From Candidatus Borrarchaeum weybense (GTDB taxonomy: Archaea > Asgardarchaeota > Sifarchaeia > Borrarchaeales > Borrarchaeaceae): 64,000 nucleotides of DNA. The translations under genes and the position numbers were made by a program. The stretch covers positions 1,137,068 through 1,201,067 of the forward strand of contig JAHQJS010000004.1 of the NCBI GenBank assembly GCA_019057385.1, given 5' to 3'. This document shows, one piece after another, positions 4,625 to 41,040 of this stretch (within the stretch, counting starts at the first letter, position 1; the number at the start of each line of letters is the position of its first letter). The notes under the pieces are model-generated. The model made no database searches and had not been told where the DNA came from. It was given only the letters and a program-made list of their open reading frames with translations.

Positions 4625-6085
4625 ATGCAACGACACAAGAATGCCCCATAGCTTGAACTTGGGGATGAATTGTATCAAGCGATTACGTTTATAACTTCTT
4701 GAAAATTTTGCTGAGTTTATAAACAAGGATATAGTAAGTAGAGTGAGAATCTGTATGCTTAATCATTATCTGGATAGTTTAGTTTGTGCGGAGAACTTGT
4801 GTCATGTCAATTAAGAACGAGCGGATCAAAGTTACATTGAAGGACACTAAGGAGCGCCGTAAACAGATGGAATGTCGGGTGTATACCGTCAAGCTTGACC
4901 ACTCGCACTTAAACCAAAACTCCTTAAAAATCTTAAAGCGATTATTCTTGGAAGCGAAATGGCTGTACAATTATTGTGTGGGTCATCCTGATGTGTTTTC
5001 TATTGATGATAAAATAAAGGCCGTGCCGGTGAAGGTTAAAGACCAGTTTGAACTTCGCCAATTAAGGCAGTTATCGTCACACATGCGTCAGAGCATCATT
5101 ACGCGCACCCAACAGAATATCCGTGGCTTAGCGCGTGTGAAAGCCAAGGGTCACAAAGTTGGACGGTTGAAGTTTAAGTCGTACGTGAAATCCATCCCGC
5201 TCAAGCAATACGGCAATACCTACAAGCTCATCAACGGTAACTACTTGCAGCTTCAAAGGCTACCACAACAATTGCGTGTCAACGGCTTGGAACAACTGCC
5301 ATCTAATTGTGAATGTGCCAATGCTACCTTACTGCACCAGCATGGCGATTATTACGTGGCGATAACTACCTATACCTCACGAGAACACAAACCAGCGATG
5401 GTAGTGCCAGCAAAATCAATTGGCATTGATTTTGGGGTAAAGAATCAGTTATCGCTGTCGAACGGCGTACATATATGATACAAGATACCAGTTACGCGCC
5501 GTATCAAGCAGTTGTGTAAGAAATTAAGTTGTAAACAGTATCGCAGTAAGAATTGGTGGAAAACGCTCTATAAGTTGCTCAAAGCCTACGCCAAAACCAC
5601 CAATATTAAACGGGACATTCGCAATAAACTGGTTCATTTCCTCGCCACCAATTTCCAAATGGTGTGTTATCAAAATGAGAATTTAGGCGCCTGGCAACGC
5701 CTGTGGGGTAGAAGAATGCTGTCAACCAGCCTGGGTGGAATCATACGCATGCTTGAAGTCAAGGTGCATACACCGGTGGAAATTGACCGTTTCTTTCCCT
5801 CTACCAAGATTTGTTCGCGTTGCGGTCATCAGCGGACTATGAGTTTAGAAGAACGCACCTATGTGTGTCAGCATTGCGGTCTGGTGATAGACCGTGATTA
5901 TAACAGCAGTTGTGTGCTAGAACACGAAGGTCATAAAATACTAGGTAGGGGACCTACCGAAGTTACGCCTGCGGAGACTAATACCTCTACCTTAACGTTG
6001 GAATATCTGAACCAGATAGCCTACGTTAAGGCAAGTATGGTCGCAGAAACAGGAAGCCTCACCGCTTTCGCATGAGGTAGTTCAC
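4625..6085 (+). mobile_element. IS200/IS605-family (IS1341-type) tnpB-only element 1
   Basis: TTTAC at 4620-4624, LE hairpin cccca..tgggg, RE gcctca..tgaggtagttcac; empty site restores the host reading frame. Confidence 0.85.
4804..6075 (+). pseudogene. tnpB: TnpB interrupted by in-frame TGA (5476-5478)
   Basis: ORFs 4786-5478 and 5512-6075 are in the same frame; GIDFG, CSRC..CQHC, DRDYN motifs. Confidence 0.85.
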
Positions 6086-14294: not shown

Positions 14295-14607
14295 GTGAGT
14301 TACCTCGTGTTAAAGCTTTGAGGCTTCCTGCTTCAACGACAGACTCGATCCCCTGGCGGGTTACGGAGGTCTTATCTCCACAGGCTTAAATTCCCTACGC
14401 CCCGTAGGTACTGCTAACGATGGGATACAATCGGAGTCTGCACCTTGTCTGCAAGTGTGCGAGTTATCCCTCCAATTGTTATTGATACCTTCCTCATTCC
14501 ACCTATATAACTTGAGGGAGACCCCTCAATGCACGTGATGAAAGTGAACTCTCACTCACGCAATTCATCACCACGCTGATGCGGTGGTGCTTTCTTGCTT
14601 AGCAATT
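14295..14607 (-). mobile_element. Non-autonomous IS200/IS605 mini-element A carrying a TnpB omega-RNA, no ORF
   Basis: TTTAC flank (14608-14612), LE hairpin, TATA, and a ~118-nt RE region nearly identical to 26938-27056. Confidence 0.85.
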
Positions 14608-15985: not shown

Positions 15986-17370
15986 GAGTTGTAGTAGGAA
16001 GTCCCCTTCCGACAAGTGGGGGATGAAAGCCGCTGGTCTTATATAGACTTTTTGATTATTACTATTAGTAAAGAGTTCTACGTGAAGTCTATGAAACTCA
16101 CACAGAAAATCAGGATCTTTCCGACACCAGAACAGGAAACAGTTCTCTGGAAGCTCTCAGAGAAGTGCAGACTCATCTATAACTTTGCCCTTGCCGAAAG
16201 AAGGGACGCCTATAGAACCGGGGCAAAGAGGGTGAACTATCGCACACAGCAAAACAGCCTACCGCTCATCAAAGAACAATTCCCAGAGTATAAGTGGGTG
16301 TATTCTAAGGTCTTACAGTTTGCTCTCAGGTCGTTGGCTGCTGATTACAAGTCGTTTTTTGCCCTTCGAAAAAATGGGTGCGCCGATGCTTGTCCCCCGC
16401 GATTCAAAGGAAAACAGTACTTCACCACGATGATGTATAACCAGTCGGGATTCAAGCTCGAACCTGGAAAAATTACCTTTTCCCATAAATACAATGATGT
16501 ACCTTTGGTGTTTGTCATCCCGGACAAATTTTCTTTTGACGATAAGCAGGTAAAACAGGTCGCCATCTCTTCATACAGAAGTAAATATTTTGTGACTATC
16601 ACTTATGAGTTGGAAGAACCCCGCTATGTGGATAACGGTCTGTACCAAGCCATAGACTTAGGAATTACCCACATCGTTACGGCAGTCAATTCCCAGGGTA
16701 AGTTCTTGGTGGTAGAAAATCAGCGCCCAGACAAATATTGGAATCCGAAAATAGCCAAAGTACAATCACGGAAGGACAAATGCAAGAAATTCAGCAACCG
16801 GTGGAAACTGCTAAACGAGATCAAACACAAATACGAGCGAAAGCGTGATAATCAGACGCGTGATTTCCAACATAAGCTCAGCAAGAAACTGGTGGAAAAC
16901 ACTAAAGCCAACACCATTATTATTGGCGAACTGGAAGTTAAACACATGGCACATTCGAATAAGGTGCCAAAACACATTAGACATGGGTTAAACCGCGCCA
17001 CGCAGAACAGCGGGGCGCTGGGACGGTTCGTGCATTTTCTAACCTACAAATCGAGGCGAGTAGGTAAAAGGACAATAGAAATTGACGAACGAAACTCGAC
17101 TAAAGCATGCTGGGTGTGCGGAAAACTGCATTCAATGCCAATTTGGAAACGAATTATGAGTTGTGACTGTGGTAACGTGATAGAAAGGGATAAAAATAGT
17201 GCGATCATCCTGATGAAACGTTACCTATCACAAAATGCCAAGTGGACGGGCTATCGGGTGTTTCTCGATAATCTGCGACACACAGCCAAATGTAAAACGA
17301 AAGTTTCTCCCGCAGTAGGGAGTTAGGAGGACTCGCAGGAAGCCCCATCCGTCAGGATGAGGTAGTTCAC
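15986..17370 (+). mobile_element. IS200/IS605-family tnpB-only element 2 (left boundary approximate)
   Basis: LE hairpin tccccttccgacaagtggggga; RE catccgtcaggatgaggtagttcac. Confidence 0.85.
16091..17326 (+). CDS. tnpB: TnpB RNA-guided nuclease
   Basis: HTH N-terminus, AIDLG, CWVC..CDC, ERDKNSA; canonical RuvC-II Glu position reads IIGEL, with a candidate alternative Glu in IDERNST. Confidence 0.9.
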   Translation: MKLTQKIRIFPTPEQETVLWKLSEKCRLIYNFALAERRDAYRTGAKRVNYRTQQNSLPLIKEQFPEYKWVYSKVLQFALRSLAADYKSFFALRKNGCADACPPRFKGKQYFTTMMYNQSGFKLEPGKITFSHKYNDVPLVFVIPDKFSFDDKQVKQVAISSYRSKYFVTITYELEEPRYVDNGLYQAIDLGITHIVTAVNSQGKFLVVENQRPDKYWNPKIAKVQSRKDKCKKFSNRWKLLNEIKHKYERKRDNQTRDFQHKLSKKLVENTKANTIIIGELEVKHMAHSNKVPKHIRHGLNRATQNSGALGRFVHFLTYKSRRVGKRTIEIDERNSTKACWVCGKLHSMPIWKRIMSCDCGNVIERDKNSAIILMKRYLSQNAKWTGYRVFLDNLRHTAKCKTKVSPAVGS

Positions 17371-25968: not shown

Positions 25969-26757
25969 CTAAGCTTCGTTTGATTCACTCGTGAGAATCA
26001 CTCTGCAATCCACTGCAATTACTTCCGTTTCAGTTGCGAAGAGAGGGTTTATGTCAATCTCCCGAATTATCGGCAACTGCTGTTTGGCTTTATCATCTTG
26101 TTCCCAAGATACATTCATTATTAACTCTGAGATCAGAAGCAAGGTTTTAACTATTGCATCCTTATTAACTGGAGGTTTTCCTCGTACTCCCTCTAGGATC
26201 TTTTTAGCTTTAATTTCATCAAGCATCTCTCGGGCATCATATTCGGTGATTGGAACTACACGAAAGCTCACGTCTTTCAGGACTTCGACGAAAATACCGC
26301 CCAGCCCAGTCATAATAAGTGGACCAAAAGTCGGGTCTATAGTTGTTCCAATGATGACCTCAACACCTTTTGCCATTTCTTCAACCATGATACCTTCCAT
26401 ATCTGCTCCTGGGGTTTTTTCATTAATTTTTGCCATTATTTCATCAAAGGTTTGTGCTGCTTCTTCAGGTGTAGATATACCTACAACCACACCTCCCATA
26501 TCTGTCTTATGAAGTAATTTAGGATCAGAACTCACGATCTTCATTACAACAGGGCAACCAATTTCTTCAGCCAAGTAATGTGCTTCTTCTGACGATCTTG
26601 CTACCCCAAATTTATTAACGGTGATTCCACAAGCTTTTAAGATGTCCTTACTTTCAGCAACATCCAGAATAGATCTATTTTCTCCTTTTGCTTTTTCGAT
26701 GATAGCATTAACCTTCTTGATATCAATCATATTTTTGACTTCTTGCATGAGATTCAC
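25969..26757 (-). CDS. acdB: Acetate/acyl-CoA ligase (ADP-forming) beta subunit, ATP-grasp
   Basis: PVVMKIVS, HKTDMGGV, DPTFGP, GLGGIFVE, DINP. Confidence 0.9.
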   Translation of the reverse strand: MNLMQEVKNMIDIKKVNAIIEKAKGENRSILDVAESKDILKACGITVNKFGVARSSEEAHYLAEEIGCPVVMKIVSSDPKLLHKTDMGGVVVGISTPEEAAQTFDEIMAKINEKTPGADMEGIMVEEMAKGVEVIIGTTIDPTFGPLIMTGLGGIFVEVLKDVSFRVVPITEYDAREMLDEIKAKKILEGVRGKPPVNKDAIVKTLLLISELIMNVSWEQDDKAKQQLPIIREIDINPLFATETEVIAVDCRVILTSESNEA

Positions 26758-26852
26758 CTTTACTAAACATTTTTGTATATAATGGAACTAGTATTAGAAG
26801 TTTTATAAACAGTAACAAAATCTGCATGACTCTTTCAGTTTCAATATTTTTA

Positions 26853-27056
26853 AGTAACTAAGCAAGAAAGCATCACAGCTTCAGCGTAGCAATGAATTGC
26901 GCTGAGTTTATATAGCTTGTTGATGAAAGAGGCTATAAGTACCTACGGGGCGTAGGGAATTTAAGCCTGTGGAGATAAGACCTCCGTAACCCGTCAAGGG
27001 GATCGAGTCTGTCGTAGAAGCAGGAAGCCTCGATGCTTTAGCACGAGGTAGCTCAC
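26853..27056 (+). mobile_element. Non-autonomous IS200/IS605 mini-element B: LE + TATA + TnpB omega-RNA only
   Basis: LE ctaagcaagaaagc..atgaattgcg shared with element A; TTTATATA at 26907-26914; scaffold 26938-27056. Confidence 0.85.
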
Positions 27057-27077
27057 ATAAATGGGTGTCTTACTATG

Positions 27078-27110
27078 ACATCCTTCTCACCCTTTCGGAA
27101 GGGGACTTCG
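27078..27110 (-). mobile_element. IS200/IS605 end hairpin relic fused to truncated acdA
   Basis: aagtccccttccgaaagggtgagaaggatgtca; the hairpin nearly matches 24761-24781. Confidence 0.6.
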
Positions 27111-27639
27111 CGCCGCTTTGTGAAACAAATCCAATTGGTCCTTTTTTGGAAAATTGCCAGCAAAACTTGCATTTAATTTATTGGCAGTTCTCATAAGACC
27201 GAGACAATTTGGACCAAGAATTCTCATATCAGCATTTTTCGCAATTTTAGTGATATCATTTTGAAGTTGTTTGCCTTCTTCACCAAGTTCCCCAAATCCC
27301 GATGTAATAATTATCACTGCTTTAATGCCCTTATCAGCGCTTTCTTGAATAACTTTTCTCACAGTTTTTGGTGGGACGCATATAATGGATAAATCAATTT
27401 CGTCCTTCACTTGTGTCACATTAGGGTAGCATTTAAAACCAAGAATCTCAGTTGCTTTAGGATTAATTGGAAAGATGCCTCCTTCAAATCTAAAATTTAA
27501 AAAGATTTGAAACCATAACATTTCCTACTCGGCCTGATGTTCTTGAAGCACCAACGACTGCGATATTTCTTGGTTCGAAAAAATATCGAATTTGTTTTAG
27601 CATTAACTCATTAGGCTGAAAATCAGAGAACCTTGTCAA
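27111..27639 (-). pseudogene. acdA: Acetate/acyl-CoA ligase (ADP-forming) alpha subunit, frameshifted and truncated
   Basis: FFEPRNIAVVGAS, PINP, ITSGFGE, LGPNCLG and SQSGA are spread over different frames; sequence ends at an IS hairpin. Confidence 0.85.
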
Positions 27640-39674: not shown

Positions 39675-41040
39675 AGTACTCTCCGCAAGAAGACCCCCCA
39701 ATGTGTTGGGGGGATGAAGTGCGTGTTTTACGTGTTTCACTTTCACCGTAGTGTCCCCCAGCTTTAAATAGGTATTTGCGTATAGTAACTCTCGTGACAT
39801 GAATTTCAGGGGAACACAGGGATACGTATGATGACACGGACTTACAAATATCGCGTGTATCCAACCACACAACAGGCAACTACGTTAACGCAATGGCTTA
39901 CTACCTGTCGTCTGTTGTATAATAACGCTCTGGCAGCGCGAAAAGACGCTTGGCACACTCACCAACAATCAGTTACCTATTATGAACAAGCCACCCAACT
40001 ACAAGTTGCTAAACAGACCAACCCGTGTTTGAAGGTGGTGCATTCTCAGGTACTCCAAGATACACTCAGAAGACTGGATAAGACCTTCAGCAACTTTTTT
40101 AGGCGTCTTAAGAAGGGGGAAAAAGCCGGTTACCCACGATTTAAAGGAAAATACCGGTATGATTCCTTCACGTACCCGCAAAGTGGGTTCTCCCTCGAAA
40201 AGAACAACAAGAAACTCCGGCTCTCGAAAATTGGAAGTATCAACATTACACTCCACCGCCTTATCCCCTCTGAAGGAGTGATCAAGACCTGTACTATTAC
40301 ACGCGATGTTGACCACTGGTATGCCTGCTTTACAGTAGCACTGCCTGATCCCGAGCCTGAGTCTCAGCAGAGAGGAATAAAGAAGGCGATAGGGGTGGAT
40401 GTTGGGTTAAAGAGTTTACTTACGTTTAATAACGGAGATACCATAGCTAACCCCCGTTGGTTAAGACACTCGGAGAAGAAAGTAGCGAAAGAACAGAGAA
40501 GAAAAGATAGGAGGCAGAAAGGGTCACATAACCGTCACAAACAGAACACAAAGGTAGCACAGGTACACCAGAAGATACGTAACCAACGGAAGGACTTTCA
40601 TCACAAGCTTAGTCGAACACTGGTCGATGCTTATGACCTAATAGTGTATGAGAATCTCAAGATCACCAACATGGTGAAGAACCATCATGTAGCGAAGTCG
40701 ATTAGTGACGCCGGCTGGGGGCAACTTATGTGTTTTACGGAGTACAAAGCGGAGGAAGCTGGTACTCTAGTAGAATATGTGAGTGCCTATAATACCACAC
40801 AACTGTGTAGTAGGTGTGGGAAGCTGGTACCGAAAACACTAGCAACTCGCATCCACAGCTGTCCTTACTGTGTCCTTGATGTAGCACGAGATCATAACTC
40901 GGCCATCACCATTTTACACCGATCACGCTACTATGTAGCATCACGATCAGGGCAGGAACTGTCCGTCGAGCCTGTTTGACATGTCCCGTTGGGGAATGGA
41001 TGATTCAGGAAGCCACCCTACTTGTAGGGTGGTAGTTCAC
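39675..41040 (+). mobile_element. IS200/IS605-family tnpB-only element 3
   Basis: TTTAT at 39670-39674; LE hairpin ccccccaa..ttgggggg; RE ccaccctac..gtagggtggtagttcac. Confidence 0.88.
39828..40979 (+). CDS. tnpB: TnpB RNA-guided nuclease, canonical D-E-D triad
   Basis: YKYRVYPT, GVDVG, VYENL, CSRC..CPYC, RDHNSA. Confidence 0.95.
   Translation: MMTRTYKYRVYPTTQQATTLTQWLTTCRLLYNNALAARKDAWHTHQQSVTYYEQATQLQVAKQTNPCLKVVHSQVLQDTLRRLDKTFSNFFRRLKKGEKAGYPRFKGKYRYDSFTYPQSGFSLEKNNKKLRLSKIGSINITLHRLIPSEGVIKTCTITRDVDHWYACFTVALPDPEPESQQRGIKKAIGVDVGLKSLLTFNNGDTIANPRWLRHSEKKVAKEQRRKDRRQKGSHNRHKQNTKVAQVHQKIRNQRKDFHHKLSRTLVDAYDLIVYENLKITNMVKNHHVAKSISDAGWGQLMCFTEYKAEEAGTLVEYVSAYNTTQLCSRCGKLVPKTLATRIHSCPYCVLDVARDHNSAITILHRSRYYVASRSGQELSVEPV

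Follow-up and report, generated by a model that had tools for sequence, protein, structure and literature searches.

The question raised by this locus is what preserves a protein-free transposon derivative: the mobility of the element, or the guide RNA that it appears to encode. The element occupies positions 26852-27056 (plus strand, 205 bp) of the 64,000-nucleotide stretch of Candidatus Borrarchaeum weybense DNA that we analysed, here called the window (C4:1137068-1201067 of a 4.18 Mb genome in 8 contigs, designated G000). The ORF list of the window contains no open reading frame of 40 aa or more across it. It sits between two co-directional minus-strand genes, one for an ATP-grasp_5 protein (25969-26748) and one for a CoA-binding fragment (27087-27521), which make up an ADP-forming acetyl-CoA synthetase gene pair. 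From left to right there are a left end, a TATA box, a compact TnpB omega-RNA scaffold of 124 nt with TCAC as its last bases, and a guide derived from the flank. The preliminary description of this DNA had recognised an element of about 204 bp lacking tnpB, with a TATA box at 26907-26914, a scaffold start near 26938, the TCAC end and the flank behind it; all of these were located in the sequence, the features lying at most 1 nt from where that description had put them. The parts are the following.

26848-26851, plus strand: site of the transposon-adjacent motif, which is TTTT in this copy, TTTC in the Candidatus Borrarchaeum yapensis ortholog and TTAC in the family
26852-26906, plus strand: left end as defined by the family alignment, with AAAG at 26867-26870 on the 5' side of the hairpin
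26871-26876 and 26886-26891, plus strand: arms of the left-end hairpin, broken, three of six pairs lost
26892-26915, plus strand: promoter block containing the TATA box TTTATATA at 26907-26914
26916-26932, plus strand: spacer between TATA box and scaffold, homologous to what lies between TATA box and start in the parent element
26933-27056, plus strand: compact "M-type" omega-RNA scaffold, homologous to the coding 3' end of tnpB plus the right end
26942-26956, plus strand: 5' hairpin of the scaffold, CCTAC/GTAGG
26990-27000, plus strand: mini-hairpin of the scaffold, CCC-GTCAA-GGG
27024-27027, plus strand: GAAG preceding the right-end hairpin
27028-27048, plus strand: right-end hairpin CCTCG/CGAGG, intact in this element
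27053-27056, plus strand: end motif TCAC
27057-27072, plus strand: predicted 16-nt guide, equal to the DNA flanking the right end

The conserved scaffold block starts at about 26933 and the motif AGTACC begins at 26938, while the right flank after TCAC reads ATAAATGGGTGTCTTAC (27057-27073).

BLAST and nhmmer searches of the genome recovered a family of about 38 protein-free IS200/IS605 mini-elements (PATE/MITE), made up of 17 copies of ~204 bp, about 19 copies of ~313 bp and some fragments. When the copies are aligned, their resemblance ends precisely at TTAC to the left and at TCAC to the right, with unrelated DNA beyond; the exact borders shared by a whole family identify the sequence as an element and not a chance pattern. 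The family left end reads CACCAC-nGCTTCAGC-GTGGTG and the right end CCTCG-nnGCTTTAGCn-CGAGG, each with a loop of the GCTTYAGC type. AAAG lies 5' of the left hairpin and GAAG 5' of the right one, which we take to fit the IS608 pairing code for TTAC and TCAC, respectively. In most of the short copies the TATA motif stands at the same distance from the scaffold. The long subfamily is represented in the window by copy A (14295-14607, minus strand, ~313 bp), which has the left end and scaffold of the short copies and, in addition, a leader of ~90 nt between TATA box and scaffold. The interior of the long copies was considered as an N-terminal remnant of tnpB and rejected, as it is a 5' leader shared with the element at C6:869116-870825.

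The mode of insertion was determined by mapping the flanks of 50 copies from four sister genomes back to G000. Most of these insertions are lineage-specific; the family has therefore been active since the species split, and so many private insertions imply a working transposase. For copies filled in the genome of Ca. B. yapensis (G004) and in G001-G003, at least eight precise empty sites were found in G000, each reading TTAC followed directly by the flank, with no duplication. The family inserts scarlessly exactly 3' of TTAC without target-site duplication, which is the "peel-and-paste" signature of IS200/IS605, and it is a non-autonomous, IS608-like member of that group (PATE/MITE). The whole G000 genome contains one Y1 tnpA (C7:194221-194586). 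This sole tnpA belongs to a related but distinct TnpB family with other hairpins, a flank of approximately TTTAA and the same right end, ...GGTAGTTCAC; the TTAC family has been recently mobile despite this single tnpA lying in another family. At three sites in G004 (L125:1030, L114:1303 and L116:919) and one in G000 (C4:389402), the first 7-10 nt after TTAC copy the first 7-10 nt of the right flank, that is, of the guide region. Such a duplication is not expected of this family and could be the repair scar of RNA-guided cutting followed by microhomology-primed re-copying.

These properties place the family among known systems. PATEs often encode omega-RNAs that need TnpB in trans from other elements, as described for Geobacillus stearothermophilus (Meers et al. 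2023, PMC10055086), and PATEs were also reported from Haloquadratum (PMC3119063). The present copies resemble them in having both ends, no ORF, multiple copies and a need for TnpB from another element, and presumably in being mobilised in trans by a Y1 TnpA; they differ in the Asgard host, in an inherited archaeal TATA box ~24 nt from the scaffold, in a scaffold variant seen only in protein-free copies and, for the copy under study, in being immobilised yet conserved between species. As in IS608 and ISDra2, insertion leaves no scar and takes place 3' of a tetranucleotide (which for IS608, too, is TTAC), each end has a subterminal hairpin, the scaffold extends over the 3' end of tnpB and the right end, and the guide is flanking DNA. 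In contrast to those elements, tnpA and tnpB are both missing and the right-end motif is TCAC. This motif and the target-adjacent TTAC are one base apart, and avoidance of self-cutting at a filled site would hinge on that single nucleotide.

The origin of the scaffold was traced through the full-length tnpB elements. Among the 41 PF07282 (TnpB zinc-ribbon) matches in G000, one cluster of TnpB proteins of about 423-436 aa has ends related to those of the mini-element:

A-type tnpB elements: C5:22779-24292, C6:305859-307296 and C6:869116-870825, protein of about 432-436 aa
B-type tnpB elements: four intact copies and a broken one in the window, protein of 423 aa
4623-6085 of the window, plus strand: full-length B-type relative with related left end, TTAC flank and 140-nt scaffold, its tnpB split by a frameshift into ORFs 4786-5478 and 5512-6075

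The window also holds tnpB genes at 16091-17326 and 39828-40979 (both plus strand), which together with that at 4786-6075 (plus strand) represent three different groups. All A- and B-type elements have TTAC on their left flank. In profile and pairwise alignments the mini-element scaffold matches the last 140-150 nt of these elements, inside the tnpB ORF. Since the ORFs reach to within ~10 nt of the TCAC end, the homologous segment consists of the coding 3' end plus the right end, where omega-RNAs are encoded, and this homology supports the preliminary description in its view of the locus as an omega scaffold without tnpB. The A-type protein matches Pfam PF01385 (OrfB_IS605) and PF07282 (Cas12f1-like_TNB) as well as the solved structures of ISDra2 TnpB, with the GIDFG, DEN and DRDHNA motifs in the alignment, and is a bona fide TnpB.

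The M-type scaffold differs from the A- and B-type scaffolds in that a central segment of ~55 nt with a stem-loop is replaced by ~24 nt with a 3-bp hairpin, capped by GCAA in the family consensus and by GTCAA in the present element. In addition, the first stem is inverted between the scaffold types (CCTAC/GTAGG versus GGTAG/CTACC) and G:C is swapped for A:T in the right-end stem. Across an alignment of seven M-, A- and B-type sequences, 97% of the cells in three helices pair, compared with 26-43% in slid controls, and four pairs change on both sides; these compensatory pairs trace to few independent events, and variation within the family is too sparse for covariation analysis. The single-sequence fold was no better than that of shuffled sequences (z = -1.28), and a pseudoknot was not located in the scaffold. 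Searches of the window against Rfam gave nothing at gathering score and, in E-value mode, one chance match to a snoRNA (E = 5.8); no tRNA or tmRNA was found.

We found the compact scaffold exclusively in protein-free copies. BLAST and nhmmer detected no tnpB with an M-type scaffold in G000, no M-type scaffold lies next to any PF07282 match in G001-G004 or G035, and its junction is absent from the viral contigs. Hence the full-length tnpB with a matching scaffold that the preliminary description called for is missing from the six mapped genomes, and the cognate TnpB would be a related one, of A- or B-type. Among 251 Asgard genomes, the M-type scaffold is present in all five of the host genus and in two of the four of one other genus, and a scan of GTDB species genomes with the conserved scaffold motif hit exclusively Asgard MAGs (Ca. 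Borrarchaeum yapensis, Borrarchaeota, Ca. Sifarchaeum and Promethearchaeota). In ISDra2, a 116-nt scaffold is sufficient and an internal stem can be replaced by a GAAA tetraloop with a gain in activity (PMC10097598). Because of these two properties of ISDra2, the M-type is plausible by analogy as a compact, working guide scaffold: its 124 nt are near the 116 nt of ISDra2, and its central stem-loop is shortened as in the engineered "Trim2" omega-RNA (stem 3b replaced by a GAAA loop; PMC10097598). Unlike Trim2, the compact scaffold is natural, the deleted stem would correspond to stem 3b judging from position only, and it has no detectable sequence similarity to the ISDra2 omega-RNA.

The TATA box also derives from tnpB elements. 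In the short subfamily, the sequence from the left end through TATA box and spacer aligns colinearly with the left end of the A-type element C6:305859-307296 up to a CTATRRG motif ~25 nt past the TATA box, at which the mini-element jumps to the scaffold. A more distant, tnpA-holding group of tnpB elements (group C) has an equal layout, with the hairpin followed by TTATATAG. As the TATA box follows the left-end hairpin in full-length elements too, the alignments identify it as the inherited, ancestral tnpB promoter, apparently moved beside the scaffold by internal deletion. The preliminary description had suggested that this could be an independently transcribed guide gene; the box is present and conserved in position, its block shows no difference at 24 positions between orthologs, and a dedicated new promoter was rejected on account of the colinearity with the promoter of the parent tnpB element. 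The spacing between TATA box and start that is usual in archaea predicts transcription from about 26936-26940. No clear purine-rich BRE precedes the box, which is nearly symmetric, so that its direction is not fixed. For the sotRNAs of archaeal IS1341-type tnpB genes, one of which lies in a 120-bp truncated Halobacterium remnant that perhaps persists for its RNA, a BRE-TATA was not found upstream (Gomes-Filho et al. 2015, PMC4615843). The present case is similar in being an archaeal non-coding RNA from the tnpB 3' end, here predicted from sequence, on a defective remnant possibly kept for the RNA; it differs from the sotRNAs (PMC4615843) in its TATA box at promoter distance and in that retention is argued from rates between species.

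The sequence after TCAC is unrelated between copies, and the guide of the present element is unique in the genome, in which neither a second match nor a TTAC-flanked target was found. Eight 17-mer matches to the guide in viral contigs all lack TTAC and fit chance expectation.

What became of the element after insertion was followed in Ca. B. yapensis, where the same insertion stands between the same genes. The orthologs share identical flanks, a damaged motif in place of TTAC (TTTC in G004, TTTT in G000), a private GCGCTGAG before the TATA box and a rare scaffold haplotype, GGGAATTT with CCCGTCAAGGG, carried by 3 of 37 copies in G000 and 2 of 29 in G004. Because of this combination, the sequences support orthology by vertical descent and not by conversion. 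Both flanking genes are kept without the insert in G002, the locus is not assembled in G001 and G003, and a metagenome scan gave two contigs, both identical to the G004 allele; the constraint set out below accordingly concerns one independent species pair. Differences between the two orthologous regions were as follows.

Four-fold sites in the genes on either side: 24/95 and 10/41 (about 25%)
Third codon positions over the 150 nt that border the intergenic region: 0.36
First and second codon positions of the neighbouring genes: 6% and 12%
Adjacent-motif position plus left end (26848-26906): 12/59 (20%), neutral-like
Spacer: 4/16 (25%), neutral-like
TATA block: 0/24, P = 9e-4 against the neutral rate
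Scaffold: 5/124, P = 2e-10, one of the five differences falling in the first 77 nt
Guide region: 1/20, P = 0.02

Left end and spacer differ from the scaffold in divergence (Fisher test, p = 2e-4), and over ~300 nt divergence alternates low-high-low-high-low at the functional borders. Thus the parts that serve mobility drift neutrally and are broken in both species, and those that an omega-RNA would require are kept; the latter are more conserved than the replacement sites of the neighbouring proteins. This supports the earlier suggestion that selection may be keeping the RNA rather than mobility. The left-end hairpin is, as stated earlier, degenerate relative to copy A: with half of its pairs gone, it reads CATCAC...GTAGCA here as against CACCAC...GTGGTG in the family. 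A comparison of left-end and scaffold divergence across the whole family is confounded by subfamily differences and was not relied on.

The same data bear on the view that the element is a still-mobile selfish PATE, which TnpA could excise and whose omega-RNA would home by cutting the empty donor site for copy-back. The activity of the family, with its mostly lineage-specific insertions, and the Y1 tnpA in the genome would allow this. At this site, however, the TTAC motif is destroyed in both species, the left-end hairpin has been eroded differently in each, the two lineages departing from the family consensus at different sites, and the insertion has been fixed in place since before the species split. 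The copy is immobile, and we consider it very improbable that it is maintained by transposition.

A stronger competitor is an inert relic, that is, a dead PATE whose scaffold was reset by gene conversion from ~35 near-identical paralogs, or whose intergenic surroundings have a shallower history, the left end escaping rescue because it is less similar among paralogs. Several paralogs are 1.7-4.2% from the scaffold studied here, as close as the ortholog, so divergence by itself is not enough to exclude conversion, and short-tract conversion is possible within the scaffold, especially in its 3' third. The intergenic flanks outside the element are also conserved, with 4/97 and 4/57 differences (93-96% identical), other regions shared by G000 and G004 are 92-98% identical, and another shared copy (C8:44830) has a decayed right end in G000. 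Exchange between copies was seen elsewhere as well: besides this one, only three copies are shared by G000 and G004, of which one lies in an uninformative, 95%-identical region and the remaining two show replacement or recombination inside the element. A converting donor would, however, usually erase the private variants and the rare haplotype (about 5-8% of copies) that the orthologs share, and the 77 nt of scaffold carrying these variants differ at one position. Moreover, the alternation of divergence falls exactly on functional borders, third codon positions right beside the intergenic region reach 0.36, and left end and spacer match the neutral rate and do not exceed it. The rare haplotype and the fine alternation of segments argue against conversion or a shallow local history, without proving the point, and we regard the relic as unlikely.

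The two exchanges were observed as follows. At one chromosomal site, a 315-bp long copy in G000 (C4:389402-389088) corresponds to a 204-bp short copy in G004 (L122:968-1171), with identical flanks and scaffolds ~95% identical, which implies replacement of the interior or conversion between copies. Copy A (14295-14607, minus strand) matches G004 L119:1271-948 at 99-100% identity from the middle of the scaffold to 350 nt into the right flank. The left halves of the two copies are different and unrelated sequences flank them on the left, which indicates a recombination breakpoint inside the element.

Another alternative, which the conserved flanks would also suit, is a host element that has nothing to do with TnpB and is a structured or regulatory segment of the acetyl-CoA synthetase intergenic region. 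For instance, its TATA box could fire toward the minus-strand gene downstream, or it could bind protein as DNA or as RNA. Its position between the co-directional minus-strand CoA-binding and ATP-grasp_5 genes would suit such a role, as would the unfixed direction of the TATA box with no recognisable BRE. Yet a likely promoter of the downstream gene lies much nearer its ATG (TTATATAC, minus strand, about 26772-26784), antisense pairing would not call for constraint on the sequence, what is conserved falls on the omega-RNA module that the family as a whole conserves, and G002 keeps both genes without the whole ~375-bp insert that surrounds the element. Hence we judge a host element of this kind to be quite improbable.

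The reading that we prefer, at a probability of about two in three, is that of an old, immobile PATE, generated by internal deletion, whose promoter, scaffold and guide have been kept because the RNA is still made and bound by TnpB in trans. An internal deletion would have fused the left end, the TATA box and approximately the first transcribed bases of a tnpB element to a shortened, 124-nt omega-RNA scaffold; in the short subfamily almost no sequence would have been left between the start of the transcript and the minimal scaffold. An RNA transcribed from the TATA box, with its start at about 26936-26940, would consist of the scaffold followed by a guide of ~16 nt copied from the right flank. 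The copy was already inserted, with a damaged TTAC, in the common ancestor of the host species and Ca. B. yapensis; loss of the left-end hairpin in both lineages has since made its excision impossible. Continued production of the RNA and its binding by TnpB in trans is the most likely reason for the near-constancy of promoter block, scaffold and guide, and the intact A-type (about 432-436 aa) or B-type (423 aa) proteins of the same genome, which share the TTAC motif, are candidate partners; we infer the transcription start, the loading into TnpB and any action of the ribonucleoprotein. Against this reading, an immobile copy never regenerates a TTAC-flanked target that would account for a benefit of the RNA, and no tnpB with the compact scaffold was found in the six genomes.

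A more far-reaching version, which we hold to be possible though rather doubtful, is that the locus is an exapted, transposon-dead omega-RNA gene in which the host, or a host-TnpB partnership, has preserved promoter, compact scaffold and a fixed guide by purifying selection that predates the split of the two species, and that the MITE-only scaffold represents a minimised guide lineage living off the TnpBs of other elements. Its role would not be transposon homing, as excision of the copy is impossible and a TTAC-flanked target for its guide is lacking; it could, for example, tune or titrate TnpB or bind at its own locus independently of the TAM.

Omega-RNA-bearing PATEs have been published before, and what the present analysis adds is a comparison of rates between species, in direct support of an RNA module retained after mobility was lost, together with a compact scaffold seen in protein-free copies only. 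The copy is a natural experiment on whether single, stand-alone omega-RNA copies matter to the cell. Should its RNA prove to be expressed and loaded, a guide-RNA gene can outlast the loss of mobility, perhaps as a first step toward the domesticated guide systems TldR and CRISPR-Cas12, whose presumed ancestor is TnpB, and the 124-nt scaffold would be a naturally minimised guide for an archaeal TnpB. Asgard archaea, to which the host belongs, are the lineage nearest to eukaryotes, and the eukaryotic Fanzor nucleases are relatives of TnpB. With the guide RNAs of TldR, the domesticated nuclease-dead TnpB repressors (PMC10705468), the analogous outcome would be a guide RNA kept for a role at host level; in contrast to TldR (PMC10705468), there is no linked nuclease-dead TnpB in the present case, the guide has no match besides its own flank, and a regulatory target was not found.

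The surroundings of the element have been rearranged as well. Compared with G004 and G002, G000 has lost ~0.94 kb just to the right of the element, between two copies of TCGCGCC (junction 27108-27115). The loss truncates the CoA-binding, acetyl-CoA synthetase alpha-like gene (ORF 27087-27521, minus strand) to 144 aa; its last codons are read from the flank of the element, and at first and second codon positions it evolves at about twice the rate of the neighbouring gene. The element itself lies inside a larger insert of ~375 bp (26800-27114; L099 in G004), bounded by a TTAGAA repeat and absent from G002 (L100), which is either an older element that the mini-element jumped into or the result of a microhomology deletion in G002. 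Furthermore, the right flank at 27076-27116 holds a motif of ~41 nt that is repeated in the genome (e.g. C4:817184, C7:213988 and C6:90732) and resembles, in reverse orientation, the hairpin at the left end of group C, the TnpB family linked to tnpA.
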